Positions 2,584 through 18,739 of a stretch of DNA of 27,386 nucleotides are shown here, piece by piece (position 1 is the first letter of the stretch; each line of letters begins with the position of its first letter). The notes beneath the pieces were generated by a model. That model was not told the DNA's origin. It searched no databases and saw only the letters and a program-made list of their open reading frames with translations. Source of the DNA: a virus (lineage: Duplodnaviria; Heunggongvirae; Uroviricota; Caudoviricetes); the IMG/VR virus record IMGVR_UViG_2648501669_000002, positions 1 to 27,386 of that record; one strand, 5' to 3'. The translations under genes and the position numbers were made by a program.

Positions 2584-2787
2584 ATGGCAATTAAGCGTTT
2601 TTCCGTCATTCGTTTCACATCCAGAGGGCGTGAATACGAAGTTGACGAACGGCTGATTAAAACGCTCGACCGTCACCGTTCGCAACCTGACGCGCATCAC
2701 ATTTATCTCACTGACGACACTTACTTCTGCGCCACCAACGTGGTGCAGGTGAACCTTATCCGACAGGTACAGGAGTCACGCAGATGA
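2584..2787 (+). CDS. Hypothetical small protein (67 aa)
   Basis: Track ORF preceded by AAGGGGG; stop overlaps the next start (ATGA at 2784-2787). Confidence 0.5.
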   Translation: MAIKRFSVIRFTSRGREYEVDERLIKTLDRHRSQPDAHHIYLTDDTYFCATNVVQVNLIRQVQESRR

Positions 2788-3325: not shown

Positions 3326-3336
3326 AGGACCTCGAT

Positions 3337-3540: not shown

Positions 3541-4367
3541 AGAAATTCAAACTCTTTCAGATTCTCCCGCTTTTTGCTGCCATCCTGCTGGTTGGTTGCG
3601 ATCGCGTTGAGCCAGGTAATGTGGGCATCAAAGTCAACAAACTGGGCGACGACAAAGGCGTCGGTGAAGTGGTTGGCGTTGGACGCTACTGGACAGGCTG
3701 GAATACAGAGGTTTACATCTTCCCAACCTTCAAACAAATGAAGACCTACGATGAGCCGTTCAGCTTTCAGATGAGTGACGGCACAACCATCGGCTATCAC
3801 ATCGGTGTGGCCTACAAGGTTGATCCATCCAAAGTTACTACAGTGTTTCAGACCTACCGCAAAGGCGTGGATGACATTACCGACACTGACCTGCGCCAGA
3901 AGATCGCCGACGCACTCAACCGACTGGCCAGCAAAATGACCACCGATAAATTTATCGACGGTGGCAAGTCTGAACTGCTGGATTCAGCACTTAAAGACAT
4001 TCAGGAGGAAATGACACCTATCGGCATTCAGGTAATGAGCCTCTCTTATGTCGGTAAACCGGAATACCCACCAACCGTTATCGACAGCATTAATGCCAAA
4101 GTTACGGCAAACCAGAAAACCCTGCAACGCGAACAGGAAGTCAAGCAACGTGAAGCAGAAGCCAACATGTTGCGCGCAGAAGCTGCCGGACAGGCTGATG
4201 CCATTCGCACAAAAGCCCAGGCTGAAGCCGACGCCATTCGTTTGCGTGGTGAAGCTCTGCGCCAGAACCCCGGCGTTATGGAGCTGGAAGCAATCAACAA
4301 ATGGAACGGCACGCTGCCGCAATACATGACCAGTAATACTGCTGTTCCGTTTGTTCCGGTGAAGTAA
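3537..4367 (+). CDS. SPFH/band-7 (prohibitin/HflK-like) domain lipoprotein
   Basis: Track ORF of 276 aa. N-terminal signal peptide with lipobox (LLVGC). Central region plus a Q/E/A/R-rich coiled-coil tail (QREQEVKQREAEANMLRAEAAGQADAIRTKAQAEADAIRLRGEA) is typical of SPFH proteins. Confidence 0.7.
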   Translation: MKKFKLFQILPLFAAILLVGCDRVEPGNVGIKVNKLGDDKGVGEVVGVGRYWTGWNTEVYIFPTFKQMKTYDEPFSFQMSDGTTIGYHIGVAYKVDPSKVTTVFQTYRKGVDDITDTDLRQKIADALNRLASKMTTDKFIDGGKSELLDSALKDIQEEMTPIGIQVMSLSYVGKPEYPPTVIDSINAKVTANQKTLQREQEVKQREAEANMLRAEAAGQADAIRTKAQAEADAIRLRGEALRQNPGVMELEAINKWNGTLPQYMTSNTAVPFVPVK

Positions 4368-4434
4368 TTCAACCCGGCCAGTGAAACCGCTGGCCGAAAA
4401 TATAACGAATAAACAAAAAGCCAGAGGACAGAAC

Positions 4435-4581
4435 ATGCACAAAGCCTTTGAACGATGGATGCGCCAGCGTTACGGCAATCGCTATGACCTGACAAGGGAT
4501 GTTGATGGCTACTACTGCCGCGAAATTGTGAAACGAATGTTTGAAGTGTGGTGTCACGCTCACGGCCTGTACGCCGTGTAA
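4435..4581 (+). CDS. Hypothetical small protein (48 aa)
   Basis: In-frame Met 19 of track ORF 4381..4581 with AGAGGA SD 6 nt upstream; last gene of the rightward early block before a terminator. Confidence 0.4.
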   Translation: MHKAFERWMRQRYGNRYDLTRDVDGYYCREIVKRMFEVWCHAHGLYAV

Positions 4582-4719
4582 TCCATGTCACTGTCAGAAG
4601 ATTAACCCATGTACACACAAAAAAACCGCTTGCCATGCCGTAATCAGTCAGGTTACATTTCCGCTGCACCTCATAAAACGGGTGCCGGGTTTCGCAGCCT
4701 GCTGACAACCAAAGCGCAC

Positions 4720-4740
4720 AACCGCGCCAGCGGTTTTTTT
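4720..4740 (+). terminator. Candidate rho-independent terminator
   Basis: Read directly: stem AACCGC/GCGGTT with GCCA loop, followed by a 7-T run (AACCGCGCCAGCGGTTTTTTT). Confidence 0.5.
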
Positions 4741-4752
4741 GTGCGTACTGTA

Positions 4753-4781
4753 TTGCCACGTCTTTTTCGCACACGAATTAT
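4753..4781 (+). promoter_or_regulatory. Candidate sigma70 promoter (TTGCCA-17 nt-AATTAT)
   Basis: Read directly; predicted start site falls at the 5' edge of the structured GC-rich element. Not scored computationally. Confidence 0.35.
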
Positions 4782-4788
4782 GGCGGGG

Positions 4789-4850
4789 CGTACGGGGCCG
4801 ACTTCGGTCGGGCCGGGTTCTTTGGTTGCCGGTACTGCGAACCCCGTACG
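4789..4850 (+). other. GC-rich nested stem-loop element (possible structured 5' leader, small RNA or protein-binding site)
   Basis: 9-bp inverted repeat CGTACGGGG (4789-4797) / CCCCGTACG (4842-4850) enclosing a 5-bp stem with UUCG tetraloop (4798-4811) and CCGG-containing dyads; non-coding in any convincing frame. Confidence 0.3.
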
Positions 4851-4919
4851 TCTCGCCACCCACAGTTTCGCAGCTCTGGATGGTGAGTTTTCAAAACTTA
4901 CAACCAAAGAGGCCACCCC

Positions 4920-5150
4920 ATGGCAAACCGCAAACAGCACCGCGCTATCGCGGAGCGTCGTCACATCCAGACTGAAATCAACCGCAGACTTTCCCGCGCA
5001 TTCCGCGTCGCTAAAATCATGCACATCAATATGCTGCATGAGCGTAGCTGCGAACTTTCAAACCTCTATTCATCCGCTGTTTTCAGCTATCTGGCGGATG
5101 ATCTGCGCGAGCTTCAGCAGCTCATCCAGCAGCAAAACAAACTCCATTAA
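4920..5150 (+). CDS. Hypothetical small basic protein (76 aa)
   Basis: Track ORF with AAAGAGG SD 7 nt upstream; first gene downstream of the promoter and leader candidate. Confidence 0.45.
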   Translation: MANRKQHRAIAERRHIQTEINRRLSRAFRVAKIMHINMLHERSCELSNLYSSAVFSYLADDLRELQQLIQQQNKLH

Positions 5151-5222
5151 TTCCTGTTCCGGGCCTTTCCTGCACCTTGCGGCGGGAGGCCTTCGCACAT
5201 CTGTAGTAAAGAGAATTGCAGC

Positions 5223-5612
5223 ATGATTGACGCTCATGACTTCACAAGATGGGTGCGGACACAGGACACCCGTCTGGCTCCCGTTCTTCAGGGATTATTT
5301 GATCTTTACATCCGTGGTCGTGACAACAGAGCACGCACTACAAAACCGGAGAATGCGGACACCCTTTATTTCACAGTAGACGACTGCTACCGCGTGGACT
5401 TCACACCACACGGGCTGGCGTTGCACTGCCTGACACCACACGGCGAATCACTGCTGGCGTATTACGACTCCCCGGCCTCCGTATTCGCGGCAATGCTGGC
5501 GCATCGCACTGCTGGCGGGTGTGCCTCGCTGAGTGAATACACCGCTGAATTTAACCGCCTTTCCGCCATCTTCTCGCAGGAGTGGCAGCGCGTGACGGGA
5601 TACCAGCCATGA
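5223..5612 (+). CDS. Hypothetical protein (129 aa), translationally coupled to gpA
   Basis: Track ORF with AAAGAG SD; stop overlaps the ATG of the replication gene (ATGA at 5609-5612). Confidence 0.55.
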   Translation: MIDAHDFTRWVRTQDTRLAPVLQGLFDLYIRGRDNRARTTKPENADTLYFTVDDCYRVDFTPHGLALHCLTPHGESLLAYYDSPASVFAAMLAHRTAGGCASLSEYTAEFNRLSAIFSQEWQRVTGYQP

Positions 5613-8434
5613 GCGAGTTTGCATGGAGCTGGAATGAACCACGACCAGCCATTGATCCGGCCAGATTTACGGAGCGCAGGCAGGAAACTGAAACCGACCT
5701 GCAACGCGCCATCCGTTACTACCTTGAGGCAGACAAAAGGGCACAGGAAGAACAGGAAGCGAAGGAAGAAGCCTTTTTCGCACAATCCGCCATGGGTAAA
5801 AAACTCATGGCATCCCTTGAGGAAGCCGGACAGCGTGAAAAGCTGGCACAGAGCATCATCAGTAAGCGCCGGGCAACAGAACAAGACCCAGTAGCCCGTG
5901 CCTTTGCTACACTAAAGGCACTACCTGTTTATCTGCGTGAACCACTGAGCCGCCACCTCTCTTTCCTGCGCAAAAAACAGGAAGCCGATCGCCAGAAAGG
6001 CAAAAAGAGCTGGCAGGCGGAACGCTATGCACGCGGAACCCTGCGCAAAATATTCGAACGTCTGGATCGCACTGACGGACGCTGGCTGACACCGGGTTAT
6101 CGCTCCCTTGCCGGGCGCGAACGCCTGGACGATTTGCTTTACCTGCCGCAGCTCAACAAGCACCAGATACAGACGCTGGCCACCATGATCGCGGCGATGT
6201 TCAGCAGCACCTTCGAAACACTCTGCGATGGCTTTGGTGCCAGAGATGGCGAGCTGACCATGGATGTAATGTTGAAGGCTTACCGGATGCTGGCTCGTAT
6301 CGCATTACGCCTGCACATCATGCCGCCACATTACGAAGCCCTGAACAAGAGCGAACCGGATACGGAACTGCTGCCGGGTGCAATCCTTCGCCTGACCTGT
6401 GCGGACTGGTGGAAACGCAAACTGTGGCTGTTACGTTGCGAGTGGAGAGAAGAACAACTCCGCGCCGCCTGTCTGGTTTCCAGAAAAACATCGCCTTATC
6501 TGAGCCAGGACGCGTTAAGCGAGTTTCGCGCACAGCGCGAGAAAACACGCGATTTCCTGAAAAGTTTCATGCTGGAAAACGAAGACGGGTTCACGATTGA
6601 TCTCGAGACAGTGTATTACGCGGGAGTAAGTAACCCGGTTCACCGTAAGGCAGAAATGATGGCCACCATGAAGGGGCTGGAACTTCTGGCTGAAGCCCGT
6701 GGTGACAAAGCGGTGTTTCTGACTGTCACCTGCCCGTCAAAATACCACGCAACAACGGAGAACGGTCATCCGAATCCCAAATGGAACGGGGCCACCATGC
6801 GCGACTCCAGCGATTACCTGGTTAACACGTTTTTTGCGGCGGTCCGCAAGAAACTGAACCGCGACGGCCTGCGCTGGTATGGCATCCGCACGGTGGAGCC
6901 TCACCATGACGGCACCGTGCACTGGCATATGATGGTCTTTGCCCATCCGGAAGAAATCGACACCATTGTGTCCCACACCCGCGATATTGCCATTCAGGAA
7001 GATCGTCACGAGCTGGGCGATGATATTACTCCGCGCTTTAAGGCGGAGTATGTAGACGGCTCAAAAGGCACGCCAACCAGCTACATCGCCACCTACATCG
7101 GAAAGAACCTGGACAGCCGCGCCGTGGATGGCATCGACCCGAAAACGGGCAAGCCACGCGTTGACCACGAAACAGGAAAATCAATGGCCGAGAGCGTGGA
7201 GCGCGCCATCGGCTGGGCGCGCCTTCACCGGGTCCGCCAGTTCCAGTTCTTTGGCATTCCCTCCCGTCAGGTGTGGCGTGAACTCCGCCGCCTTGCCAGC
7301 CAGATGGCACGCAACCCGGAAGGCCAGCAACGGCTGAAGGATGACGCAATGGACGCGGTTCTTGCTGCCGCTGATGCCGGATGTTTTGCCACCTACATTG
7401 AGAAACAGGGCGGCGTACTTGTTCCACGCAAAGACTACCTGATTCGCACCGCCTACGACCTCGCAGATGAGCTGAACGATTACGGTGAACAGAGCGTACA
7501 GATTTACGGGATCTGGTCGCCGCTCATCGGGGAGTCTTCCCGCGTATGTACACATCCGGATAACTGGAAGCTGGTAAGACGCAAACCGGAAGCGGGAGAC
7601 AGCGCCCGCGAAAATGGTTTTGACCTTCAGGGCGGCCCTGCCGCCCCTTGGACTCATGGCAATAACTGTCCCCGTGTACAGGAAACAGGCAACAGCGGGA
7701 CAGAACTGTCGGAAGAGCAACCAACACCGTGGCCGCAGATCCCTGACAGCGTTGATGTGGATGAATGGATGCGCTCACTGAAACGGCACGAACGCCGGGC
7801 GCTGATGCGTTCGCTGCGTGACAAACAGGCAAAAAACAGCAGTGATGAAATGCAGAGCTGGACACAGAGCCGCAAACAGCCGCGACCTTTGCCTGATAAC
7901 CACGAGTTACTCGCTAAAGAATGGCGGGAGTCTGCTGAATCTCTCGGCCTGCATATTGGTGAACAGCAGATGCAGCACCTGTTACGGGGCGGCAGTCTGT
8001 ACGTTGACGGCAGCATCATTGCACCGCAGGGATTTGAAATTGTACGCAAACCGGATACCCGCCCGGACAGCCGAATCACGCAGCTCTGGCAGCGCCTGAG
8101 CCGTAATCACGGCGTAAGCAGCACGGAGATCCGCCATAACCCGGTCGCCAGTTATCTGGAACAGCTAGGGGCATCAGACCCCGAAGCCGCCGCACGCCTG
8201 GCATCCACACTTCAGCAAGACCAGAACACCATGAAAACACCCGTTACCGTGCTTTCTGACATGCTGCGCGCCATCCGTGACGCAGAGCACGCACAGAGAA
8301 TCAGTGAAACCACTGAACGCGCCCGCCGCAAAGCAAACCTGCTGCGGGGTGGCCTGACCAGTGGAAACAAAAAACAGACAGAAACGGGATTCACAAATCC
8401 CGTAAATGAGCAAAAAACGCGCCGCGATATATGA
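5609..8434 (+). CDS. A: Rolling-circle replication initiation endonuclease, P2 gpA family
   Basis: Track ORF 5582..8434 (GTG at 5582; ATG at 5609 coupled to the upstream stop is preferred). Contains the HUH-type motif VEPHHDGTVHWHMMVFAH and a paired-tyrosine segment TSYIATYIGKN, as in the P2 gpA endonuclease domain, plus an FLTVTCPSKYH motif. At 941 aa it is longer than P2 gpA (about 760 aa, from memory). Confidence 0.85.
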   Translation: MSEFAWSWNEPRPAIDPARFTERRQETETDLQRAIRYYLEADKRAQEEQEAKEEAFFAQSAMGKKLMASLEEAGQREKLAQSIISKRRATEQDPVARAFATLKALPVYLREPLSRHLSFLRKKQEADRQKGKKSWQAERYARGTLRKIFERLDRTDGRWLTPGYRSLAGRERLDDLLYLPQLNKHQIQTLATMIAAMFSSTFETLCDGFGARDGELTMDVMLKAYRMLARIALRLHIMPPHYEALNKSEPDTELLPGAILRLTCADWWKRKLWLLRCEWREEQLRAACLVSRKTSPYLSQDALSEFRAQREKTRDFLKSFMLENEDGFTIDLETVYYAGVSNPVHRKAEMMATMKGLELLAEARGDKAVFLTVTCPSKYHATTENGHPNPKWNGATMRDSSDYLVNTFFAAVRKKLNRDGLRWYGIRTVEPHHDGTVHWHMMVFAHPEEIDTIVSHTRDIAIQEDRHELGDDITPRFKAEYVDGSKGTPTSYIATYIGKNLDSRAVDGIDPKTGKPRVDHETGKSMAESVERAIGWARLHRVRQFQFFGIPSRQVWRELRRLASQMARNPEGQQRLKDDAMDAVLAAADAGCFATYIEKQGGVLVPRKDYLIRTAYDLADELNDYGEQSVQIYGIWSPLIGESSRVCTHPDNWKLVRRKPEAGDSARENGFDLQGGPAAPWTHGNNCPRVQETGNSGTELSEEQPTPWPQIPDSVDVDEWMRSLKRHERRALMRSLRDKQAKNSSDEMQSWTQSRKQPRPLPDNHELLAKEWRESAESLGLHIGEQQMQHLLRGGSLYVDGSIIAPQGFEIVRKPDTRPDSRITQLWQRLSRNHGVSSTEIRHNPVASYLEQLGASDPEAAARLASTLQQDQNTMKTPVTVLSDMLRAIRDAEHAQRISETTERARRKANLLRGGLTSGNKKQTETGFTNPVNEQKTRRDI
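8384..8403. repeat. Palindrome ACGGGATT-CACA-AATCCCGT (copy 1, inside the 3' end of gpA)
   Basis: Read directly: perfect 8-bp arms. Confidence 0.45.
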
Positions 8435-8456
8435 AGCGCGCACAAAACAGGCGAAA

Positions 8457-8476
8457 GCGGGAGTTCAGAATCCCGT
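8457..8476. repeat. Related imperfect palindrome GCGGGAGTTCAGAATCCCGT (copy 2, upstream of parM)
   Basis: Shares the GAATCCCGTAA half with copy 1; centres about 73 bp apart; 34 nt upstream of the parM ATG. Confidence 0.4.
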
Positions 8477-8509
8477 AACCGATTAATTAATCAACATAAG
8501 GAAATCGAC

Positions 8510-9469
8510 ATGAAAATTTGTATCGACGACGGCTCCACCAACATCAAGCTGGCATGGACTGAGAACGGCGAACGCCGCAACGCCATCAGCCCGAACAGCT
8601 TCAAGTCGGAATGGTCAGCGCCGTTCGGTGGCACGCAGCCCGCGAACTACATGCTTGATGGCGTGCGCTATGGTTTTGATCCGGTCAGCGATCGCTTTGT
8701 CCAGACGACCGACACGCAATACCAGTACAGCGATGTGAATGTTATTGCCATTCATCATGCGCTGGTCAAATCAGGCATCACACCACAGGAGGTGGATGTG
8801 GTTGTCACCCTGCCACTGAGCGAGTATTTCGATACAAACGCACAGCCGGACATGGCCAACATCAGCCGCAAAAAAGCGAACGTTATGCGCCCGGTGGAGT
8901 ACCAGAACGGCGAAGCATTCACTATCCGTAACGTGCGGGTTATGCCTGAATCCATTCCGGCAGGCTTTAAAGCACTGGCTGACATGAGTCCGTTTGAATC
9001 CCTGCTGATTGTGGATTTGGGCGGAACCACGCTGGATGTGGCAAAGGTTCAGGGGCAACTGGCAGGTATCAGCCAGGTGTTTTGCGATCCACACGTAGGC
9101 GTTTCTCTGATGGCCGATGCCGTGCTGTCGGTGATGGCCACCAACGGTATGCGTACCAGTCACCACATCGCTAATACCATTATCGAACATCGCCACGATG
9201 AAGCCTGGCTGCGCCAGCACATCCACAATGACGCGCATTACGCCAGCCTGATGGCAGTTATTCGTGAAAAGGAGGAAACACTGAAACAACGCGTGATCCG
9301 CGCGCTGGCGGGTTTTTCGGGTTACGGGCGGGTGATGGTTGTCGGTGGAGGGGCGGAGATTGTGGCACCCGCCATCCGCGAAGCCTGCGGAGTTAATGCG
9401 ACTTTCATCGCGGACGGGGTGCCACAGTTTGCTCTGGTTAATGGGCTGTACGCAATGGACAAGGAGTAA
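8510..9469 (+). CDS. parM: ParM-like actin-type segregation ATPase
   Basis: Track ORF of 319 aa. N-terminus MKICIDDGSTNIKLAW closely matches plasmid R1 ParM (MLVFIDDGSTNIKLQW, from memory), with further ParM-like segments (ISPNSFK, QYSDVNVIAIHHAL, DLGGTTLD). AAGGA SD. Confidence 0.85.
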   Translation: MKICIDDGSTNIKLAWTENGERRNAISPNSFKSEWSAPFGGTQPANYMLDGVRYGFDPVSDRFVQTTDTQYQYSDVNVIAIHHALVKSGITPQEVDVVVTLPLSEYFDTNAQPDMANISRKKANVMRPVEYQNGEAFTIRNVRVMPESIPAGFKALADMSPFESLLIVDLGGTTLDVAKVQGQLAGISQVFCDPHVGVSLMADAVLSVMATNGMRTSHHIANTIIEHRHDEAWLRQHIHNDAHYASLMAVIREKEETLKQRVIRALAGFSGYGRVMVVGGGAEIVAPAIREACGVNATFIADGVPQFALVNGLYAMDKE

Positions 9470-9473
9470 ACCA

Positions 9474-9785
9474 ATGACGACACCAACCAGACGGATAAGT
9501 TTCTATCTGAAGCCCGCCGCCGTCAAGAACGAAGGCGAAGCATGCGCCTGGCTGGACAGCCTTACACCAGAAGCCCGCAAAAGCGGCCAACGCGTGGCTT
9601 TTCTGGCCGGGCTGGCACTTCTGAAAATGAATCCGGCAGAGGCTTACCGACTGGCTGCATGGGCTGATGATGAAGCGTTATCAGTGACACAGACCAGGAC
9701 AGAACGCCCCGCATCACAGCCAGTATCAACCGCACAGATAACCAGCCAGATGGCCGGGAATATCCAGGCGTTATTTCCTGAATAA
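9474..9785 (+). CDS. parR: ParR-like centromere-binding adaptor
   Basis: In-frame Met 46 of track ORF 9339..9785, 4 nt after the parM stop. RRISFYLKP...LDSLTPEARKSGQRVAFLAGLAL parallels R1 ParR (RRTIAFKLNP...LDSIPQGERSRLNRAALTAGLAL, from memory). Confidence 0.7.
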   Translation: MTTPTRRISFYLKPAAVKNEGEACAWLDSLTPEARKSGQRVAFLAGLALLKMNPAEAYRLAAWADDEALSVTQTRTERPASQPVSTAQITSQMAGNIQALFPE

Positions 9786-9791
9786 CACAAC

Positions 9792-9813
9792 ATCAGGGCA
9801 TATTTGCCCTGAT
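9792..9813. other. Perfect hairpin (9-bp stem ATCAGGGCA / TGCCCTGAT, 4-nt loop) just after the parR stop
   Basis: Read directly; no trailing U-tract, so a regulatory or processing role is as likely as termination. Confidence 0.3.
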
Positions 9814-9848
9814 ATCCCCTCTCAAACAAGGCAGCAACAAACTGCCCG

Positions 9849-9876
9849 TTGAATAACACAAATTACATGTTATGAT
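9849..9876 (+). promoter_or_regulatory. Candidate sigma70 promoter (TTGAAT-16 nt-TATGAT) for the 9900..10660 cassette
   Basis: Read directly; the -35 overlaps the second copy of the 12-bp direct repeat TGAATAACACAA (9779-9790 and 9850-9861). Confidence 0.35.
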
Positions 9877-9899
9877 TAACTCATAAGTAACCCCCGTTT

Positions 9900-10286
9900 G
9901 TGTCTTACGTTATGAATGATCAAGATTATGGGCTTGATACCCTATTGGATATGCACGGCTACCAGCACCACATGGATAATGGCTACTGGTGGAAGATTGA
10001 AGCCTACCGGGTCAGCCCAAGCCCATTCAGACCCCACGGGATACGTTACAATCTGACATTACATGACCAGTACAATTCCCGCATATTTGGGATGGATAAT
10101 GCTCATGGAATAAAACCACCGAAGAAGGGCCGTTTCACAGGGAAATTAACTGTTTACGACCATGTGCACCGCACAACATTTGACAAAGGCTATCCCTATG
10201 AATTCATTTCTGCGGAACAGCTTTTATCTGACTTCTTCGATAACGTAGATCGCATCATTGACGAAATCACAAGGGGGAATCAATGA
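9900..10286 (+). CDS. Uncharacterised protein (128 aa), candidate toxin/effector of a two-gene module
   Basis: Track ORF (GTG at 9900; first ATG at 9912). AT-richer than flanking phage genes. His/aromatic-rich segments (HGYQHHMDNGYWWK, YDHVHRTTFDKGYPYEF). Stop overlaps the start of the next gene (ATGA at 10283-10286). Confidence 0.6.
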   Translation: MSYVMNDQDYGLDTLLDMHGYQHHMDNGYWWKIEAYRVSPSPFRPHGIRYNLTLHDQYNSRIFGMDNAHGIKPPKKGRFTGKLTVYDHVHRTTFDKGYPYEFISAEQLLSDFFDNVDRIIDEITRGNQ

Positions 10287-10660
10287 AAGCCCGTATCGGG
10301 ATTATCCCTGAAAATATCCTCCGCCAGCGGCTACTGGATGTCGCCAGAGGAAAACGTAAACCACTGCCAGATGAACCAAAAGTATGGTTTTCTTCACTGC
10401 ACGCTGTAGGGCAAGCTCTGAGTAACGAAAACATTGCTCTGTTACGTCTGATGGATGAAGAAAAACCTCAAACAATGACAGAGTTGGCAGAAATGTCAGG
10501 CAGGAAACTGAGCAATCTTTCAGTAACCTTAAAAATGCTGAGCGGCTACGGTTTTGTCAGCCTGGAAAAGAAAGGCAATACCATTCTCCCGAAAGCATTA
10601 TTCACCGATTTTGAAATCATCATTGATCCATCTGTCGGAACCACTCATCGGGCCGCCTGA
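10283..10660 (+). CDS. Winged-HTH DNA-binding protein (125 aa), candidate antitoxin/regulator
   Basis: Track ORF. Segment PQTMTELAEMSGRKLSNLSVTLKMLSGYGFVSLEKKGNTI has a MarR/wHTH-like helix-turn-helix-wing pattern; translationally coupled to the upstream ORF. Confidence 0.65.
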   Translation: MKARIGIIPENILRQRLLDVARGKRKPLPDEPKVWFSSLHAVGQALSNENIALLRLMDEEKPQTMTELAEMSGRKLSNLSVTLKMLSGYGFVSLEKKGNTILPKALFTDFEIIIDPSVGTTHRAA

Positions 10661-10850
10661 TCCCCACCAAACCAGGGCGATAATCACGCATCGCCCTGCT
10701 GCACAATAGTGCACAAAAAACGCGCTTTTTCTGCGCGCAGGTGACGGGGGAACAGTCCGCGCTTCAGGGGTAAATGGCACCTCCTGAAAGATGCCACAGC
10801 ATCATAATAGAATGAGCGTGTTGTTCACGACACACGCAAAAACAAGAAAA

Positions 10851-10891
10851 CCCGGAACGGGTGCGCAAATTCTTTGTGCGCCCGTTCTGGG
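10851..10891. terminator. Long hairpin, probable intrinsic terminator between convergent operons
   Basis: 19-bp arms (CCCGGAACGGGTGCGCAAA / TTTGTGCGCCCGTTCTGGG) with a 3-nt loop. The three mismatches are G-U wobbles in plus-strand RNA. On the minus strand the hairpin is followed by a U-rich tract (complement of AAAAACAAGAAAA, 10838-10850), 23 nt downstream of the ogr-like stop. Confidence 0.5.
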
Positions 10892-10913
10892 TTGGACAAG
10901 CGAAGCGCGTCAG

Positions 10914-11171
10914 CTATCCAGCCTGCAACAGCTCCAGCGCCATCTGTTTTTCTTCCGGGCGCATCCGTTCAATCAACAGCTTTAACACACCGTTATCCAG
11001 CCCGCTGGGCACCAGTGTGTGCGAGTAGGTCAGATTCATCACCCAGGTATGTCCGCACTCGAGACGGGTGCAACGGTAATACACATCAGCAAACTGATCG
11101 GTTTTCCAGGCTGTTTTCTCAATCACTGCACGAGCACCACAGCAATGACACCGCGCTTTCTGTCTGCGCAT
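10914..11171 (-). CDS. ogr: Ogr/Delta-family zinc-finger late transcription activator
   Basis: In-frame Met 24 of track ORF 10914..11240, preceded on the minus strand by GGGAGGTGGAAA. Cys pattern C-x2-C...(23 aa)...C-x4-C (CHCC...CTRLEC) matches the P2 Ogr zinc-finger topology (CPLC...CQNVNC, from memory). Confidence 0.7.
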   Translation of the reverse strand: MRRQKARCHCCGARAVIEKTAWKTDQFADVYYRCTRLECGHTWVMNLTYSHTLVPSGLDNGVLKLLIERMRPEEKQMALELLQAG

Positions 11172-11236
11172 TTTCCACCTCCCGGAACAACGTTTTACTG
11201 CTGCTGATTTTACCCGCTCCTTCTCCATGTCGCACA

Positions 11237-12271
11237 TCACTCCGTGGCTTCATTAAATTCAAGAATAAATTCCACCTGCCCCAGTCGCCTGATATCAGGG
11301 TCACTATTGATTCCCTCCATAATCAGGCGGCGCATCGGAATAACCTCATCTCTGTAATATGCCTCGCGGGATTTCAGCGGATCACCAAGCCCGGCCGTAT
11401 TTGCGGGAATGATGCCGGCAAGTCCGGGTGGAAAACGGTGCGCAACGAGCTGATCCTGGGCACTGATGGTTTTTATATTCAGGAATTCATCTTTTGTACC
11501 TGAATCCCCGATAGGGATCACCTTAACGCCTTCTTTGTCTCCGCCAGGTATATTGATAAACATGGATTTAAAATTGCCCGCCCCTTTTGACGCCTCTATC
11601 TTTTTACGGAATTCCGCCTCGAGCTCGGGATCCATGTCCGGGTCAGTGGAATACAGGATATAACCAAGATGTGCGCCGTTCTTGTAATACTTGCGGCGAA
11701 AGCGGGTGGCATCCACATTCAGCATGGCAGATTCCATCCCGTGAATATAATCCGGGACACCGTAAACCTGCTGTTGTGGGTCATAAATTGCCACGAACAC
11801 CACTTCGCCTGGCGGGTAAACGAGATCTTCCAGTGCCGCCTGCACAATCACCGTGCCACCTTCGTTGTTGCGTCGCAGGTACAGAGAAGGCAACGTATGC
11901 AGGCGCACCACCCGCCCGAAGCCATTGCGCACTTTAAGCAGCCCCATATCCCCGAATATCAGCAGATTGGTCACTGCTGCCGCCATGGCGGCGTGTGTCA
12001 TACCACCACCACCCCGAAAACCCTGCATGATCATATTCACGCGCGCACGCAATACCGCGCCGTGATACGGTGCGATATTGGACAACATGGCGAGATCCAT
12101 GCGCTCAATGGGCGGCGTGTACCAGCCGTTATAGCCATCCCAGAGCGAGCCGTAATAACAGCCCCATGCAGCGACCGGTTCCGGGTCACCAAATTCAATA
12201 AACGTCATTTTGCTGGCTGTTTTTTTTGCCACGCCATCGTGTAACACGGGGTATTTTTTCTTTTTACTCAT
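11237..12271 (-). CDS. Q: Portal protein, P2 gpQ-like
   Basis: Track ORF of 344 aa, the same length as P2 gpQ, directly downstream of and overlapping the terminase ATPase gene on the same strand, in the conserved P2 Q-P arrangement. Confidence 0.85.
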   Translation of the reverse strand: MSKKKKYPVLHDGVAKKTASKMTFIEFGDPEPVAAWGCYYGSLWDGYNGWYTPPIERMDLAMLSNIAPYHGAVLRARVNMIMQGFRGGGGMTHAAMAAAVTNLLIFGDMGLLKVRNGFGRVVRLHTLPSLYLRRNNEGGTVIVQAALEDLVYPPGEVVFVAIYDPQQQVYGVPDYIHGMESAMLNVDATRFRRKYYKNGAHLGYILYSTDPDMDPELEAEFRKKIEASKGAGNFKSMFINIPGGDKEGVKVIPIGDSGTKDEFLNIKTISAQDQLVAHRFPPGLAGIIPANTAGLGDPLKSREAYYRDEVIPMRRLIMEGINSDPDIRRLGQVEFILEFNEATE

Positions 12272-14051
12272 CTGACAGGATCCATGTTGATTTGCGCTTG
12301 TGCTTATAGTTCAGGGGTTCATTACTTGCGGCATGAGCTATGGCAAAGAAGATGTCAGCGTGCCCGGTTTCTTCGCTACGTTCGGCGGTGAAAGTGACTT
12401 TATTGCCGCTGTTGGTGGATTCCTGACGAATGGCCAGGAATGATGCCGGAATATCCGTGGCTTCCTCATCCCACTCAATACGGTTGGCGTAAACCAGATC
12501 CAGCATCTTCATCACCAGGCGGTTTTTGGATTCCACGCTGTAATGAATGGCCACTGTTTCACGGCGGGCAAATCCCTGAACCAGCTCAAAGACACCGTAG
12601 CCAAGACCGGTGACGTCGATGCCGATAAACGTCATGTTATAGCGCGCCTTAATGCCGCGGATACGCTCTGCCATAAACTGGAATGACATGCTGCGCCAGT
12701 GGTGTTTTTCCAGCACGCGGAATCGTTCTGCCGCAACCAGCGGCGGTGCCAGCACAACAAATGTGGCGTTATCGCCGGAGCGCGCAGGATCAAAGCCGCC
12801 CCACACCTCACGGTTACCAAATGGCATGGGCTCTTCCGGGTGAAAATCCTCCCACGTACTGACATCAACACCACAACGCACAAGATCATCGAATTTAAAG
12901 ACGCTCTCTTTGTCATCCACAAACACACACATAAACAGCATATTGAACGCTGTTTCGTTGTATCTCTCGCGCAGCTCGTTGATATCAGCAAGGTTAAAGC
13001 CGCCGGCAATGGCATCTTCCAGCGTAACCACATAGCGCCACTGACCATCCGGACATTCACGCCCACCATCGCGCAGCTCATCAAAGGATGGAAACTCAAC
13101 CCCTTTTCGTTTCGGATCGCCTTTGCGCCATTCATCGCCAGACCAGAACGGGTAGCCCTGGTGTGTTTTGGATGACGGCGTGGAGAAATAGGTAATACGC
13201 CAGTGTTTATGGGTGGCCATCCCTGATGCCACTTCATTGAGACGGCGAAAACCGGGGATCCACAGGTATTCATCAATATACAGGTGGCCGCTGTTTGACT
13301 GCGCTGTGTTACTGTTGGTCGCCAGAAAATACAGTTCAGCCAGATTACTTAACTTAACCGGATTGCCTTTAATGGGAATGCCAAACTCTGTTTGTGCAAT
13401 TTTTACAATATAAGTACGGAACACTTCGGCCTGACGTTTTGATGCCGATAAAAATATCTGTGTGTCGCCGGTTAATACTGCATCTTCAAATGCCTCAAAC
13501 GCGAAGTAATACGTCGCCCCAATCTGGCGGGATTTAAGCAGGTTGCGTACACGGCGGAATTTGTTTTCACGCAGATGCAACTGATAAGCAAACAACTTTT
13601 TCGTAAACGGCTCAAAACTTTCAGCAGTCAGTCCGGAAACGTCATTAGTTTTGCGGGGACGCTCTTTCTTACCTGCACCTTTTTCTCCGCGTTCTTCTTT
13701 TCCATAACGGCCAGGCTGGGGAATGTCCACTCCCATTCGCGCAATCTCAGCCATTCGTTCCGTGTGCTTGTTTCTGACCGACATCAGTTTGACGTGATGA
13801 CCAATCAGGCGATCAAGCTCATCGTGTTCTTCCTGGGTCTTATGGTCACGTTCCGCCAGTACAGCGAGACGCCGGGCGATAACATCTTCCACGCCTTCCG
13901 TATTGAGCTGCGTGTACCACTCAAACTTTGTCGCCCAGTAATAAACAATTCGCGGGCTGTTCAGTCCGAGTTTCTTTTGTATTTCTTTTGGTGTGTGCCT
14001 TTTCAGATAGAGTGATTTTGCTGCGGCAATAACTTCTTCAGAATAAGCCAT
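12264..14051 (-). CDS. P: Terminase large (ATPase) subunit, P2 gpP-like
   Basis: Track ORF of 595 aa (P2 gpP is about 590 aa), divergent from the scaffold gene; sequence is of the P2-type terminase ATPase family (recognised from memory). Confidence 0.9.
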   Translation of the reverse strand: MAYSEEVIAAAKSLYLKRHTPKEIQKKLGLNSPRIVYYWATKFEWYTQLNTEGVEDVIARRLAVLAERDHKTQEEHDELDRLIGHHVKLMSVRNKHTERMAEIARMGVDIPQPGRYGKEERGEKGAGKKERPRKTNDVSGLTAESFEPFTKKLFAYQLHLRENKFRRVRNLLKSRQIGATYYFAFEAFEDAVLTGDTQIFLSASKRQAEVFRTYIVKIAQTEFGIPIKGNPVKLSNLAELYFLATNSNTAQSNSGHLYIDEYLWIPGFRRLNEVASGMATHKHWRITYFSTPSSKTHQGYPFWSGDEWRKGDPKRKGVEFPSFDELRDGGRECPDGQWRYVVTLEDAIAGGFNLADINELRERYNETAFNMLFMCVFVDDKESVFKFDDLVRCGVDVSTWEDFHPEEPMPFGNREVWGGFDPARSGDNATFVVLAPPLVAAERFRVLEKHHWRSMSFQFMAERIRGIKARYNMTFIGIDVTGLGYGVFELVQGFARRETVAIHYSVESKNRLVMKMLDLVYANRIEWDEEATDIPASFLAIRQESTNSGNKVTFTAERSEETGHADIFFAIAHAASNEPLNYKHKRKSTWILSDE

Positions 14052-14100
14052 AAACTACCTGTGGAATTTATTTTAATGGGTTTTCATCTTTTTCCGGTTC

Positions 14101-14118
14101 GTTCCGTAGCGTTCCGTA
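14101..14118. repeat. Tandem direct repeat GTTCCGTA-GC-GTTCCGTA in the P-O divergent promoter region
   Basis: Read directly. Confidence 0.35.
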
Positions 14119-14174
14119 ATATCCCATTATTTGCCGCAGGCATTTTTTTAACGATTATCTGTTTTCGGTATTTT

Positions 14175-14196
14175 TCGGATATATGCGCATATCCGA
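14175..14196. promoter_or_regulatory. Near-perfect 22-bp palindrome TCGGATATATGCGCATATCCGA in the P-O intergenic region
   Basis: 8-bp perfect arms; lies in the 230-bp AT-rich divergent region where P2-type phages have Ogr-dependent late promoters (established for P2; assignment here is inference). Confidence 0.35.
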
Positions 14197-14281
14197 AAGT
14201 ACCGGAAATTAATCAGATGACGACGTTTTCATTTCTCCGTTAAATAACGCCAGTTTAATTTTTATCAGCGGATTAATTCAG

Positions 14282-15178
14282 ATGACGAAGCAGAAAACAG
14301 ACTGGGTTGTGGTTGCCACATCAGGCCCCACCATCGACGGTCGGGAAATTGATCCGAAGTGGCTGACGGATGCCGCCGAGGTTTACAACCCGGACGAGCG
14401 AGCCGCCATGCTCTGGCCATATCACGCCGATTCCGGATGGCGTGCCTTCACCAATAACTACGGCATTGTTGATGCCCTGAAAGTCGAAAAATTTGGTGAA
14501 AAGGTGCAGCTTAAAGCACGCCTGATCCCAAATCGCTTCCTGATTGAAGCCAATAAGGCCGGGCAGAAACTTTTTACCTCCATTGAAGTGCGGGAAAACT
14601 ATCTGGGCACGGGCAAATTCTTTGTGTCCGGTATCGCCGTGACGGATACCCCAGCCAGCATTAACACTACACGCCTGCAGTTTTCCATGGGGGAAGCCAT
14701 CCATATGGGCAACGCAGAGGCGCTGAATTTTACGCTGCAGCCTGATGATGAGCAGGCCAAGCGCAACTTCTTCTCCCGCTTCTTCTCATCTGACAATCAC
14801 CAACAGGGAATTTACCAAGCCATGAACGAAGAACAGTTCAGCCAGTTAATGGGTGCCATTAATAAAACCAGTGAACGCCTGGACGAGCTGGAAAAAAACG
14901 TCGCGCAGTTCAGCGCGAAGGATGCCCCGAAAGATACCGGTGATAACAAGCCGGAAGGCAGCACCGGCGATCAGGGGCAGGACAACGCAGAACAGAACAA
15001 CAAGGACGACAAAACCTTCACGCTGACCACCGAGCAGGGCGAAAAGCTGTTCTCCACAGTGAACGCCATCGCGGAGAAGGTTACCAGTATGGAAACCGCA
15101 TTTGCTGAACTCAGCAAGGACGCCACGAAGCTGCCGGGCAACAATCCGGCCGGTGGCGAAACTTTTAACCTGGTGTAA
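14282..15178 (+). CDS. O: Capsid scaffolding protein, P2 gpO-like
   Basis: Track ORF of 298 aa; N-terminal region (VVVATSGPTIDGREIDP...FVSGIAVTDTPAS) parallels P2 gpO; conserved position. Confidence 0.85.
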   Translation: MTKQKTDWVVVATSGPTIDGREIDPKWLTDAAEVYNPDERAAMLWPYHADSGWRAFTNNYGIVDALKVEKFGEKVQLKARLIPNRFLIEANKAGQKLFTSIEVRENYLGTGKFFVSGIAVTDTPASINTTRLQFSMGEAIHMGNAEALNFTLQPDDEQAKRNFFSRFFSSDNHQQGIYQAMNEEQFSQLMGAINKTSERLDELEKNVAQFSAKDAPKDTGDNKPEGSTGDQGQDNAEQNNKDDKTFTLTTEQGEKLFSTVNAIAEKVTSMETAFAELSKDATKLPGNNPAGGETFNLV

Positions 15179-15192
15179 CCGGAGAGAGCGCA

Positions 15193-16206
15193 ATGAATTT
15201 CACACCAGAAGCACAAAAGCTGGTTAATCGCTATATCAGCGAACTGCAAAAAACATTCAGTGACTGCGAACGCTCGAGCGATCGTTACTTTTCACTGACC
15301 GAACCGCGCAGCATTGCCCTGCGTAAAGCCCTGCTGGAAAGCACGGAGTTTCTGAGTTTCATCACCTGCATGGACGTTCCGCACCCGCAGGGGCAGGTCG
15401 TCACCGTGGGCGAATCCACACTGCGCACCGGTCGCGTGAAAAGCGGTCGTTTCGCTAAAGGTTCGGGCATCAAAGGCAACGAATTTAAACTCGTTGAAAC
15501 TGATTCCTGCTGCGTGATCACCTGGGAACAACTCGCCATCTGGGCGAATGCCGGCAGCCCGCAGGAATTTTTCAACCTGATGAACTCCGCCGCCGTCACC
15601 AACTTTGCGCTGGATATGCTGCGCATTGGCTTTAACGGTAAAACAGCAGCGGAAAACTCTGACCCGGAAAGTCATCCGAACGGCGAAGACGTCAACATCG
15701 GCTGGCATGAAATCGCCAAAAAGTGGGGAGAACAGCCCGGCAATACCTCCCGTATTCTGACAGACGCCGTTACCCTGGGCGAAGGCGGCGATTATGTCGG
15801 TCTTGATGCCATGGCCTCAGACCTGATCCGCACTTACATCCCGGCACAGTATCACAACGACCCACGACTTACCGTACTGGTCGGCGCAGACCTTGTGGCT
15901 GCTGAAGAACTACGCCTCTACAACAAAGAGGATAAGCCTACCGAAAAAGTGGCCGCACAGTTGCTGACAAAGAACATTGCAGGCCGCAAGGCTATCATTC
16001 CGCCGTTTATGCCGGGCAAACGTATGGTGGTGACCATGCTGCCAAACCTGCAGATCCTGACGCTGAAAGGCTCCCGCCGCCGCAAGGCAGAAGATGTGGG
16101 CGATCGCAAACAGTTCGAAAACTCATACTGGCGTTATGAGGGGTACGCCCTGGGCGATCCGGATTTATATGCTGCCGTGGATGAGTCTGCGGTCACCATC
16201 TCCTGA
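15193..16206 (+). CDS. N: Major capsid protein, P2 gpN-like
   Basis: Track ORF of 337 aa; segments LRIGFNGKTAAENSD, GEGGDYVGLDAM and DPRLTVLVGADL parallel P2 gpN (MAGFNGVKRAETSD, GKGGDYASLDAL, DPDLVVIVGRQL, from memory). Confidence 0.85.
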   Translation: MNFTPEAQKLVNRYISELQKTFSDCERSSDRYFSLTEPRSIALRKALLESTEFLSFITCMDVPHPQGQVVTVGESTLRTGRVKSGRFAKGSGIKGNEFKLVETDSCCVITWEQLAIWANAGSPQEFFNLMNSAAVTNFALDMLRIGFNGKTAAENSDPESHPNGEDVNIGWHEIAKKWGEQPGNTSRILTDAVTLGEGGDYVGLDAMASDLIRTYIPAQYHNDPRLTVLVGADLVAAEELRLYNKEDKPTEKVAAQLLTKNIAGRKAIIPPFMPGKRMVVTMLPNLQILTLKGSRRRKAEDVGDRKQFENSYWRYEGYALGDPDLYAAVDESAVTIS

Positions 16207-16223
16207 TAAACGGAGCGCACGGT

Positions 16224-16934
16224 ATGCCAACGCCAATGCAGCGACAACGTGCCCGACAGATGGATGAGCGCCGTGCGGCGCTCATGACCAGAACAGACGG
16301 GCGCGCCGTCAGCACAGAGAGTCAGCACATTAAGCTGCTGGCACTGGATAACGATGTCAGACAACTGCACAACATGGAGCTGCTGTCTGACAAGCTGGAA
16401 TTCAAGCGGAACACGCTGCTGCCCCGCTGGCTGCCACACGCACAGGCTTATCTGGAGGGGGAACGCGTCTATCAGAATCCCATTCTGGTGTACTGCATCA
16501 TCTGGCTGTTCGATACCGGGCAGTTTGAGATGGCGCTGCGGTGGGCTGACATTGCCATTGAGCAGGGGCAAAAGACGCCGGAGAACTTCAAAAGCGAGCT
16601 GCCAACGTTTGTGGCCCATTTCATTCTTGAATGGGCAGAAGCCGAAGCTGAACGCGGGAACAGTATCGCGCCATATTTTCAGCAGGTGTTTGAAAAAATC
16701 CGCGACAAATGGCGCGTGAATGAACGCCTTGCTGCCCGCTACTGGCGCTTTGCAGGCATCCTGCTGCTGCGCGGCGATGACGGCAAGCCACAGGCCAGCG
16801 CAATTAACGATCCGGAGAGACTGCAACAGGCCGACCAGTGCCTGGAACGGGCTGCCTGGCTGCATCCCAAAATTCAGGTGAAAACCCTGCGCCAGCGCAT
16901 TGCCGCAAGACTGCGCGCGTTGCAGGGCACGTAA
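16224..16934 (+). CDS. M: Terminase small/endonuclease subunit, P2 gpM-like
   Basis: Track ORF of 236 aa (P2 gpM is about 247 aa); conserved position after N. Confidence 0.8.
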   Translation: MPTPMQRQRARQMDERRAALMTRTDGRAVSTESQHIKLLALDNDVRQLHNMELLSDKLEFKRNTLLPRWLPHAQAYLEGERVYQNPILVYCIIWLFDTGQFEMALRWADIAIEQGQKTPENFKSELPTFVAHFILEWAEAEAERGNSIAPYFQQVFEKIRDKWRVNERLAARYWRFAGILLLRGDDGKPQASAINDPERLQQADQCLERAAWLHPKIQVKTLRQRIAARLRALQGT

Positions 16935-17032
16935 ACGACTCCCAACAACCGGGCGGGCGCGGTGGAGGTGTGCCGGTAAAAGCCATCAGCACACTGCGGA
17001 AACCGGTCAGCCCGCCTTTCCCCGGAGTGAGC

Positions 17033-17527
17033 ATGTTTGACGGGAAAAGCATTCACTATCAGCAGGCCATTATTCAGAACGATGGATTCTGGCCGGATAT
17101 TGATGCCGGCGATTTTGAAAAGAGCCGCAGCATCCCCGCCGTCACGTCACACGAAACGGTGCTGACGGCGCTGCTTTGCGCGGTAACAGAAATTAACACT
17201 GAACTGGCTGCACGCCGTGAATACTGGCAGGAACAGGGCCACACCCGGGCCGCCGATATTCCGGGTTACACCGTGTTGCAACCAGAACCGCGCAATACGG
17301 ATGCACAACCTGAACGGATGCAGAACCACATTACAGCACTGTACACCAAGGCTGTGTATGCCCGCGCAAAGGCCGATCTTTTGCCGGAATCTGCCAGCGT
17401 GGGGCGACGCGAGGCGCAGCCCTCATCAGAAGCCAGCGAGAGCCGCCGGACGTTGCTGGCTGAAGCGGCAATGGCGGTGCGAGCGCTGCTGGGCCGACCG
17501 CGTGCATCCATCGCGCTGATTGATTAA
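17033..17527 (+). CDS. L: Head completion/stabilisation protein, P2 gpL-like
   Basis: In-frame Met 66 of track ORF 16838..17527 with GGAG SD 5 nt upstream; 164 aa (P2 gpL is 169 aa); FWPDIDAGDF and the C-terminal GRPRASIALID resemble P2 gpL. Confidence 0.7.
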   Translation: MFDGKSIHYQQAIIQNDGFWPDIDAGDFEKSRSIPAVTSHETVLTALLCAVTEINTELAARREYWQEQGHTRAADIPGYTVLQPEPRNTDAQPERMQNHITALYTKAVYARAKADLLPESASVGRREAQPSSEASESRRTLLAEAAMAVRALLGRPRASIALID

Positions 17528-17536
17528 GGAAATGGT

Positions 17537-18010
17537 ATGACGCAACTCGCCAGCCTGACGGCATTCATTGAAAACAATCTGCCGGCACGCGCACACATTC
17601 CGTTCACCAGTGACATGGACGACATCACGCTCGTTCCGTTTACGAAGTCGCTGGGGCACGGGCAGTTATGTACGCAGGTCCGAAAATATACGGCTTTTCT
17701 GCGATGGGACGCATGGCCCTATCGTCAGCTCAATCCGGATTTGGTGTTTTCTCTGGTTGAAGCCTGGCTGGCAGACAACGGCGGCGACCTGCGCCAGCGC
17801 CTGGCACCGGATGCGCCAGCCGTTGACGTCGAAGTGGATGATGAAAATGAAGTTGCATGGCTGGAAATCAGTCTGCCGCTGGTTGATCCCATCACCCTGG
17901 TTGAGGACGAAAACGGCCCCATCCCCAGAGGCGGGAAACGTTATCAGCTGGAAAAGCCTGAAATCTGGGTGGCTCAGGCGCATCAGCTTCACTGTCAGGT
18001 GATGCCATGA
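17537..18010 (+). CDS. R: Tail completion protein, gpR-like
   Basis: Track ORF of 157 aa (P2 gpR is 155 aa); the EAWLADNGGD and ISLPLVDPITLVED pattern resembles P2 gpR. Confidence 0.6.
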   Translation: MTQLASLTAFIENNLPARAHIPFTSDMDDITLVPFTKSLGHGQLCTQVRKYTAFLRWDAWPYRQLNPDLVFSLVEAWLADNGGDLRQRLAPDAPAVDVEVDDENEVAWLEISLPLVDPITLVEDENGPIPRGGKRYQLEKPEIWVAQAHQLHCQVMP

Positions 18011-18720
18011 CGCGCCCCGTGATTAACGAGTCACAACTCCGGCAGGTTCGCCGCGCCATCAGAGAGGCAGAGCTTCCGCCGGCAAAGGCCAGAAAGCTGC
18101 TGGTTCGCATTGCGAAATACGGCCTGATACCGGCTGCACGACGCAATGTGAAAGCACAGCGAACACCGGAGGGGGTAGCCTGGGCACCACGAAAAAGACC
18201 GGATAAAGCCAGCGGCAGGTATAAAAACAAAATGCTGCTGGGGCTGCCGAAGCTGCTGGCCATCAGGGTTGACGGCAGCGGGAAAAGTGTCCGCCTTTTC
18301 TTCAAAAAAGGGGATTACAACACCGGCTCTCATGGTGGGGCGGTCGCGTGGGTGCAACAGCACGGCGCAACCATCAAAAGCCGCGCCACAAAACGCCGGG
18401 ACAGCGAAGCCATGCGCACCCGTCCCGCCACACGACGGCAGGCAGAACGCCTTCTTTCTCTGGGCTTTCGCGCCCCCGTCGGCGCAGTCAGCAAAAAAAC
18501 CGGACGCAGAGGACGCAGAAAGCCTTCTCTGAAATGGATTATGGAAAACATGAGTATGGCGCAGGCCGGACTGGTGATCAGCATTCTGAAAGGCGAGCAG
18601 AAAAAACGTGTATGGGAAATCAAAATCCCCTCCCGCGCATTTCTGGGAGCCAGCGATGCTGAATTTGCCCGCATTCTGGAAGCGCAGCTGCGCAGCCTGC
18701 ATTACGGCGGCACGAGATAA
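18007..18720 (+). CDS. Virion morphogenesis / tail completion protein, gpS-like, with extended basic C-terminal region
   Basis: Track ORF of 237 aa overlapping the R stop; the position matches P2 S but it is about 90 aa longer, so the family call is tentative. Confidence 0.5.
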   Translation: MTRPVINESQLRQVRRAIREAELPPAKARKLLVRIAKYGLIPAARRNVKAQRTPEGVAWAPRKRPDKASGRYKNKMLLGLPKLLAIRVDGSGKSVRLFFKKGDYNTGSHGGAVAWVQQHGATIKSRATKRRDSEAMRTRPATRRQAERLLSLGFRAPVGAVSKKTGRRGRRKPSLKWIMENMSMAQAGLVISILKGEQKKRVWEIKIPSRAFLGASDAEFARILEAQLRSLHYGGTR

Positions 18721-18739
18721 CAAAATCAGGAGACAAATT

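Follow-up and report, generated by a model that had tools for sequence, protein, structure and literature searches.

The stretch of DNA analysed here (the window) comprises the 27,386 nucleotides of the IMG/VR virus record IMGVR_UViG_2648501669_000002. It contains a small zinc-finger gene of the Ogr/Delta family, ogr, which is the final gene of the terminase-portal unit in a complete P2-family structural module. The genes and features at this locus are as follows.

5582-8434, plus strand: GPA replication gene, which precedes cargo genes and then ogr, the portal gene and TerL, these three on the minus strand
10709-10815, no strand assigned: P2-type cos-like block, with the core GGTGACGGGGGAACAGTCC at 10740-10758
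10838-10893, minus strand: intrinsic terminator (hairpin and U-run) closing the terminase-portal-ogr unit
10895-10913, no strand assigned: the 19-mer GACAAGCGAAGCGCGTCAG, abutting the ogr stop codon
10914-11171, minus strand: ogr, an Ogr/Delta zinc-finger gene of 85 aa (PF04606 and phrog_603) for a putative late-gene transcription activator
11172-11236, minus strand: portal-ogr spacer of 65 nt, without a terminator and without a good sigma-70 consensus
11175-11183, minus strand: Shine-Dalgarno sequence GGGAGGTGG, read from the sequence, 3 nt short of the ogr ATG
11237-12271, minus strand: HP1-type portal gene (gpQ homologue; PF04860)
12264-14051, minus strand: HP1-type large terminase gene (gpP homologue), with Terminase_5, Terminase_6N and Terminase_6C domains
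14173-14198, no strand assigned: perfect dyad TTTCGGATAT-ATGCGC-ATATCCGAAA, a candidate activator site in the divergent terminase/scaffold promoter region
14282-15178, plus strand: capsid scaffold gene (gpO homologue), whose equivalent in relatives matches PF05929 (Phage_GPO_N)

We searched for the family of the ogr product (MRRQKARCHCCGARAVIEKTAWKTDQFADVYYRCTRLECGHTWVMNLTYSHTLVPSGLDNGVLKLLIERMRPEEKQMALELLQAG), a protein of 85 aa that begins with MRRQKARCHCCG and ends with ELLQAG. It matched the whole of the Pfam model Ogr_Delta PF04606 (model positions 1-47 of 47, E=5.6e-13, 49 bits with a cut-off of 26.3) and the phrog_603 family, a 'transcriptional regulator' (E=2.3e-29). Its cysteines are arranged as C8-X2-C11-X22-C34-X4-C39, which is the family spacing CX2CX22CX4C, and none of the four varies in an alignment with the SW3, phiO18P and K139 homologues, 186 B and P88 Ogr. 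Ogr/Delta proteins bind zinc and activate sigma-70 RNA polymerase via its alpha subunit. The small size of the family (about 70-90 aa) and its four-cysteine zinc motif are both found in the 85-aa protein. An NCBIfam search with the protein gave no match, and a sequence search of the PDB returned zinc-ribbon matches only, all of them insignificant. A longer form of the ORF, starting from the GTG at 11240, was considered unnecessary, as relatives are annotated with the 85-aa form, and an antisense ORF of 209 aa (10874-11503, plus strand) was rejected as spurious. The absence of a strong promoter of its own might suggest that the ogr ORF arose by chance or is a relic that is not expressed, but the full-length Pfam match, the strong Shine-Dalgarno sequence and the retention of all four cysteines argue against it. 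So do the identical protein on many independent contigs (it was present in 69 blocks of public contigs), the homologues in SW3, phiO18P and K139, which are 42-52% identical and occupy the same position across genera, and the lack of any family match for the antisense ORF; we give a relic or chance ORF almost no probability. It is very likely, in our view, that the ORF encodes an Ogr-family zinc-finger activator of the HP1-type late module of a P2-related (Peduoviridae) prophage.

The ogr ATG is located at 11171, 65 nt past the portal stop. A terminator scan between the portal gene and ogr found none, and a sigma-70 promoter scan of the ogr strand found nothing convincing for ogr itself. The spacer does contain a -10-like TAAAAT (11207-11212), and SW3 has a TAAAAT at a similar upstream distance; folding of the 65 nt was not better than that of shuffled sequences (z=0.58). 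The terminator on the other side of ogr has its hairpin at 10849-10893, then UUUUCUUGUUUUU (10838-10848), and is kept in all relatives. The 92-nt segment containing it (10825-10916) folded with -35.6 kcal/mol, and its z value against shuffles was -3.1. The preliminary description of this DNA had reported an Ogr-like zinc-finger gene with a strong Shine-Dalgarno sequence, 65 nt past the portal stop and followed by a strong terminator. The family assignment is borne out by PF04606, phrog_603 and the invariant cysteines, and the sequence facts all hold. The 19-mer GACAAGCGAAGCGCGTCAG overlaps the portal stop in P88-like phages, and it was found exactly in P88, P884B11, P88-like E. coli prophages and all hybrid relatives. 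It is probably a module boundary or a recombination joint.

Comparison of the two sides of this joint gave different relatives. The early region (1033-10830) is ~93% identical to P88-like phages (Xuanwuvirus); besides cargo genes, it encodes GPA for replication and ParM/StbA for partition. Beyond it, from 10837, no megablast-level match was found among 50,697 deposited phage genomes, and the late part is ~97% identical to prophages of 42 complete E. coli genomes. One prophage, that of GCA_047262145.1, is 99.4% identical to positions 5930-27384 of the window, and a 32.8-kb composite of it spans the early genes (from ~900 nt inside the window) to the far-end cos described below. One of the 42 genomes is that of E. 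coli A2, in which the element sits between pheL and raiA. The portal protein showed 49-54% identity to HP1-type phages (HP1 54%; K139 40%) versus 30-32% to P88 and 186 (P88 30%). The corresponding values were 53-56% (HP1, phiO18P, K139 and SW3) versus 36-43% (P88 and 186) for TerL, and 41-47% (HP1-type phages) versus 24-26% (P88 and 186) for TerS. The scaffold gene is the first of the rightward late operon, and the tail genes, all on one strand, lie after the head genes and include the families DUF2586 (sheath), HP1_Orf24 and HP1_ORF34. As judged from these sequence comparisons, the window is a mosaic of a P88-like early region and an HP1-type late module.

The order of terminase, portal and ogr-like genes is common to HP1, K139, phiO18P and SW3. 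As in these phages, the ogr homologue of the window has the replication region on one side and the portal gene, co-oriented with it, on the other. The K139 order is P, Q, orf14 and orf13 (zinc finger), and in phiO18P gp19 (10920-11171) begins 65 nt past the portal gene (11237-12250, both in phiO18P coordinates). HP1 carries an unannotated, apparently frameshifted ogr homologue in the gap past its portal gene. Among IMG/VR sequences, an Ogr homologue was found just beyond the portal gene wherever the locus reached far enough, in 30 loci. Conversely, neither the 32.8-kb composite nor any of the 31 related loci had an Ogr-type ORF following the D-like gene. That is the position occupied in the 186 record by B, which follows gene D beside attP/int, and in P88 by an unannotated P2-type Ogr ORF immediately after gene D; gp53, the last annotated gene of P88, showed no similarity to Ogr. 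The position of ogr in K139 and Smhb1 has been given in print (PMC8537503), and the HP1/K139-type layout has been described in the literature (PMC8537503, PMC2771037). The location of ogr beside the portal gene is thus the normal and already described HP1/K139-type layout, and the finding is an ordinary one because this is the known position in HP1/K139-type P2 relatives. The preliminary description had contrasted the arrangement with that of P2 and proposed a synteny comparison, which places the window with K139, phiO18P, SW3 and HP1 and not with 186 or P88. The arrangement indeed differs from that of P2 and 186, whose ogr/B follows gene D by attP/int and whose cos abuts the portal gene, but it is not unusual, being the standard order of HP1, K139, phiO18P and SW3.

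The late promoters of P2, P4 and 186 carry an activator site, TGT-N12-ACA, near -55. None was found in the promoter regions of the window; the four matches in the window all lie within genes or overlap gene ends and are fewer than expected by chance. TGT-N12-ACA was rejected as the target site on this ground, and target recognition must therefore differ from that of P2 Ogr. The perfect dyad at 14173-14198, on the other hand, is unique within the window, lies in the 230-nt terminase/scaffold intergenic region and is flanked by a second, weaker half-site pair. The same arms are also present in the terminase/scaffold intergenic regions of K139 (TTTCGGATATAACCCCATATCCGAAT) and HP1 (TTCGGATATAGCACGTTATCCG). 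A scan of IMG/VR with the exact pattern TCGGATAT-N6-ATATCCGA found 58 loci, of which 47 belong to HP1-type phages and have the dyad in the gap separating divergently transcribed terminase and scaffold genes. Among these are lineages with TerL only ~60% identical (in one case 41%) and Ogr 45-52% identical to the queries. The dyad centre is ~96 nt upstream of the scaffold ATG in the window and ~106 nt upstream in K139, a placement compatible with a site near -55 to -65. The exact dyad is absent from SW3 and phiO18P, which have different dyads, though the Ogr of SW3 is the closest. Taken from the pattern of conservation, the dyad TCGGATAT-N6-ATATCCGA is likely an activator site conserved across HP1-type phages.

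Considering that the Ogr/Delta family includes satellite-encoded trans-activators, the zinc-finger protein may be something other than the late activator of its own element, either a trans-activator of a helper or satellite, as P4 Delta, or a regulator of lysogeny. The absence of the P2-type binding site and the C-terminal SHTL(S/V)PS extension, which P2-type Ogr proteins lack, could be read in this way. But neither the window nor the 32.8-kb composite contains an Ogr-type ORF besides ogr, and PF04606 had no match elsewhere in the gene lists of this prophage type. Moreover, ogr travels with the late module across lineages, along with a conserved dyad at the late promoters, and the element has a full structural gene set and is not a satellite. 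A role of this kind is highly improbable. As an activator of its own late module, the Ogr protein would bind the dyad between the divergent terminase and scaffold genes and from there activate both late promoters via RNA polymerase, a mode of action known for P2 Ogr and 186 B at TGT-N12-ACA sites. Since no terminator separates the portal gene from ogr, late transcription from the terminase promoter should enter ogr. Because ogr is located at the 3' end of the late operon, such read-through would give positive feedback late in infection. The same feedback logic applies to P2, in which ogr sits behind the FETUD operon. The first switch-on of ogr may come from a weak promoter of its own or from basal transcription.

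The cohesive ends of HP1 and phiO18P are annotated in their records just past the last tail gene and just before attP/int, and both cos regions consist of CCACGGAA(A) repeats followed by a pyrimidine-rich end. In the E. coli relatives of the window, the sequence CACGTAAAC..GACGTAAAG..GACGTAAACCGCG-CTACCCCCTCCAACCCGC-GGG was found ~155-190 nt past a 565-aa D-like gene, and it aligns well with ..CACGGAATCCGCG-CTCATCCGCTCCCGCC-TGCGGG of phiO18P. The HP1/phiO18P-like motif after the D-like gene is also present in E. coli A2 and SW3. In the GCA_047262145.1 prophage, it lies ~155 nt past the last tail gene, at a position equivalent to ~33,065 of the window and ~22 kb from ogr. The window itself, which ends at 27386, contains no HP1-type cos motif with up to 3 mismatches. 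The cognate cos would accordingly be of HP1/phiO18P type, with (C/G)ACG(G/T)AAA repeats and then the pyrimidine-rich CTACCCCCTCCAACCCGC, and would lie outside the window, ~155 nt past the D-like tail gene and ~22 kb off, beside cargo genes and attP. The preliminary description had implied that cos is elsewhere than beside the portal gene. This is most probably so, and it is supported by homology because a prophage with 99.4% identity has the motif, as do all 21 of the fetched loci that cover this flank (one mismatch at most). By these comparisons, one late module of ~22 kb, grafted onto a P88-like early region, carries the activator together with its likely target promoters and the probable cognate cos as it travels.

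A P2-type cos sequence, which the preliminary description could not recognise nearby, does have a counterpart here in the cos-like block at 10709-10815. The block sits 100-200 nt downstream of the ogr stop, with ogr and its terminator between it and the portal gene. An A-run is followed in it by a short hairpin (CGCGC-TTTTTCT-GCGCG) and by GGTGACGGGGGAACAGTCC-GCGC. Its architecture and a related core are shared with the annotated cohesive ends of P2 (GGCGAGGCGGGGAAAGCAC-TGCGCGC), 186 (GGCGTGGCGGGGAAAGCAT-TGCGCGC) and phiCTX (GGCGTGGCGGGGGGACGACT-GCGCGCG). The intergenic region that separates the portal gene of P88-like phages from their early genes matches the block at 83-94% identity. Among 5426 complete E. 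coli genomes the block was found in 997, once in each and always in an intergenic position, and in the two contexts examined it stands out as a conserved island, with variable cargo genes on one side and the portal gene on the other. In view of its single-copy intergenic occurrence and its setting as a conserved island, the block is very probably the cos of the P88 lineage. A literature search for a mapped cos of P88 or Xuanwuvirus found no data.

Conservation of the block among the relatives of the window was less uniform. In 10 contigs with the identical Ogr, the block was 100% conserved in eight, had a 1-nt deletion in one and was missing from one. It is also missing from the Rrf2 variant (E. 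coli A2, L010) and from at least 10 IMG/VR sister prophages in which Ogr, portal and terminase are 93-98% identical. All prophages without the block keep the HP1-type cos motif where the flank is covered. We considered whether the layout could be P2-like with an insertion, the block being the working cos and ogr having been inserted between cos and the portal gene. The alignment with experimentally annotated cohesive ends of P2, 186 and phiCTX, including the A-run and hairpin flank, the conserved island in the variable region of P88-like prophages and the eight fully conserved contigs would be in keeping with such a layout. Yet the identity of TerS and TerL to their P88 and 186 counterparts is only 24-43%, as opposed to 41-56% for the HP1-type phages with cos beside attP, the at least 10 sister prophages do without the block, and the HP1-type motif is present at the other end in every one of the 21 loci covering it. 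We consider a P2-like layout with a working block very unlikely. Because sister prophages appear to manage without it and the terminase proteins belong to the HP1 type, the block is unlikely to be a working cos. Instead, as a piece of the P88-like early region that the sister prophages lack, it is probably a relic or orphan cos, and it would have arrived with that region when the two lineages recombined. A cos directly downstream of ogr would have spoken against the preliminary description; a cos-like sequence is present there, at 10740-10758, but it probably does not serve as one. The earlier interpretation as a whole pointed in the right direction and is partly supported.

A bolder reading combines both cos sites with the dyad: two sites of differing specificity, the element's own of HP1 type after the tail genes and an intact one of P88/P2 type near ogr, could bring this prophage into conflict with P88-like phages, and the activator would use a second class of operator. 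We regard this combination as unlikely. If it were true, a P88-like phage resident in the same cell might be able to cut this genome and package it, or might suffer interference from it. The result would be piracy or conflict based on cos, with two full-sized temperate phages as the parties and not a phage and a satellite. Separately, the dyad TCGGATAT-N6-ATATCCGA would represent a second, undescribed operator class, that of the HP1-type branch of the Ogr family. The probable orphan cos remains our preferred reading of the block. With ogr by the portal gene and cos by attP, HP1-like peduoviruses differ from P2-like ones in the textbook manner, and the finding has little discovery value. For annotators, it means that no cos is to be expected next to the portal gene in this common type of E. 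coli prophage. Of modest side interest are the probable orphan P2-type cos near ogr in a P88/HP1-type hybrid and the conserved candidate operator of the HP1-type Ogr branch.

The closest genome architecture is that of the HP1-like viruses (Lavigne et al. 2009). The protein belongs to the same subfamily as K139 orf13, phiO18P gp19, the 'transcriptional regulator' of SW3/SI7 and the Smhb1 homologue, and shares with these HP1-type Ogr homologues the ECGH after the fourth cysteine and the SHTL(S/V)PS extension at the C-terminus. The phages that carry them have the same ogr position, HP1-type head and tail modules and the same cos motif architecture after the D-like gene, and the 65-nt gap between portal and ogr is common to phiO18P and the window. 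In contrast to these relatives, the late module of the window adjoins an early region of P88-like (Xuanwuvirus) type that includes ParM partition genes, and a P2-type cos-like block lies just downstream of ogr. In addition, the upstream motif AAAAACACAG..ATTGA.GTA.GAT of K139 and phiO18P is absent from the window. P2 Ogr, 186 B and P88 Ogr belong to the same family PF04606 and have the same CX2CX22CX4C motif, with 22-26% identity to the Ogr of the window. Their genes are likewise located at the 3' end of a late operon and followed by a terminator, and the role of sole late activator is presumably common to all of them. In P2, 186 and P88, ogr comes after the tail gene D, beside attP/int, and the portal gene borders on cos, whereas in this prophage ogr and the probable cos have effectively changed places.

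The DNA between the partition genes and ogr, the Ogr/Delta-family zinc-finger gene of the prophage, was found to contain a P2-type cos-like block next to a variable slot. The following features were located in this part of the window:

8510-9469, ParM/StbA actin-like partition gene, early region
after 9469 to about 9800, ORFs that include a Plasmid_stab_B gene, early region
9900-10660, cargo gene pair in a variable slot from the partition genes to ogr
10709-10815 (core 10740-10758), P2-type cos-like block with an A-run, a hairpin and GGTGACGGGGGAACAGTCC
10895-10913, 19-mer GACAAGCGAAGCGCGTCAG, adjoining the ogr stop

The window shares the cos-like block with P88-like phages, and a survey of 5426 complete E. 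coli genomes found it in 997. The terminase of the prophage carrying it is of the HP1 type, and the block was missing from sister prophages, relatives with closely similar Ogr, portal and terminase proteins. It is probably an orphan cos, a remnant of recombination.

Of the cargo pair in the variable slot, one gene weakly resembles TumE, a Pfam match made with the copy in the relatives, and the other encodes an HVO_A0114/MarR-like winged-helix protein. The sister prophages carried a hypothetical gene and an Rrf2 regulator in place of this pair, and the slot is possibly a hotspot for defence or toxin-antitoxin genes. Both partition genes were also found in P88-like phages; the P2-family prophage that carries them here is an integrating one.

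The HP1-type late module (10837-27386) was common among E. coli genomes, with one of its tail proteins occurring in 658 blocks of contigs. Searches of deposited phage genomes gave no match to the module at the megablast level, and the lineage therefore seems to be known only as prophage. Within this module, two repeats lay in the intergenic region between the divergent terminase and capsid scaffold genes:

14098-14120, tandem direct repeat CGTTCCGTA-G-CGTTCCGTA, nearer the terminase gene
14173-14198, perfect dyad TTTCGGATAT-N6-ATATCCGAAA

The tandem repeat might be part of the leftward late promoter. Exact matches to TCGGATAT-N6-ATATCCGA numbered 58 in IMG/VR, and 47 of them fell at the corresponding place between the terminase and scaffold genes of HP1-type phages. 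To our knowledge, the dyad site has not been described before.

Comparison with P2-related phages revealed ogr homologues and an upstream motif:

P88 (NC_026014), about 34476-34740 (+), P2-type Ogr ORF (MFRCPLCGASARIRTS...), unannotated in the RefSeq record, immediately 3' of tail gene D
HP1 (NC_001697), 10390-10757 (-), unannotated Ogr-like ORF downstream of the portal gene
K139, about 3895-3945, and phiO18P, about 11195-11235, motif AAAAACACAG-N3-ATTGA-N-GTA-N-GAT of about 30 nt

In the HP1 record, a frameshift appears to split the ORF between cysteine pairs 1 and 2. The motif lay just upstream of the ogr homologues of K139 and phiO18P and was conserved between them, even though the encoded proteins share less than 50% identity. 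This motif, which was not found in the window, probably serves as a promoter or operator. The 19-mer GACAAGCGAAGCGCGTCAG looks like a conserved module boundary or recombination joint common to two otherwise unrelated late modules. In some relatives, a cargo insertion separated it from the ogr and portal genes. In P88, the 19-mer overlaps the portal stop, whereas in the window it adjoins the ogr stop instead.
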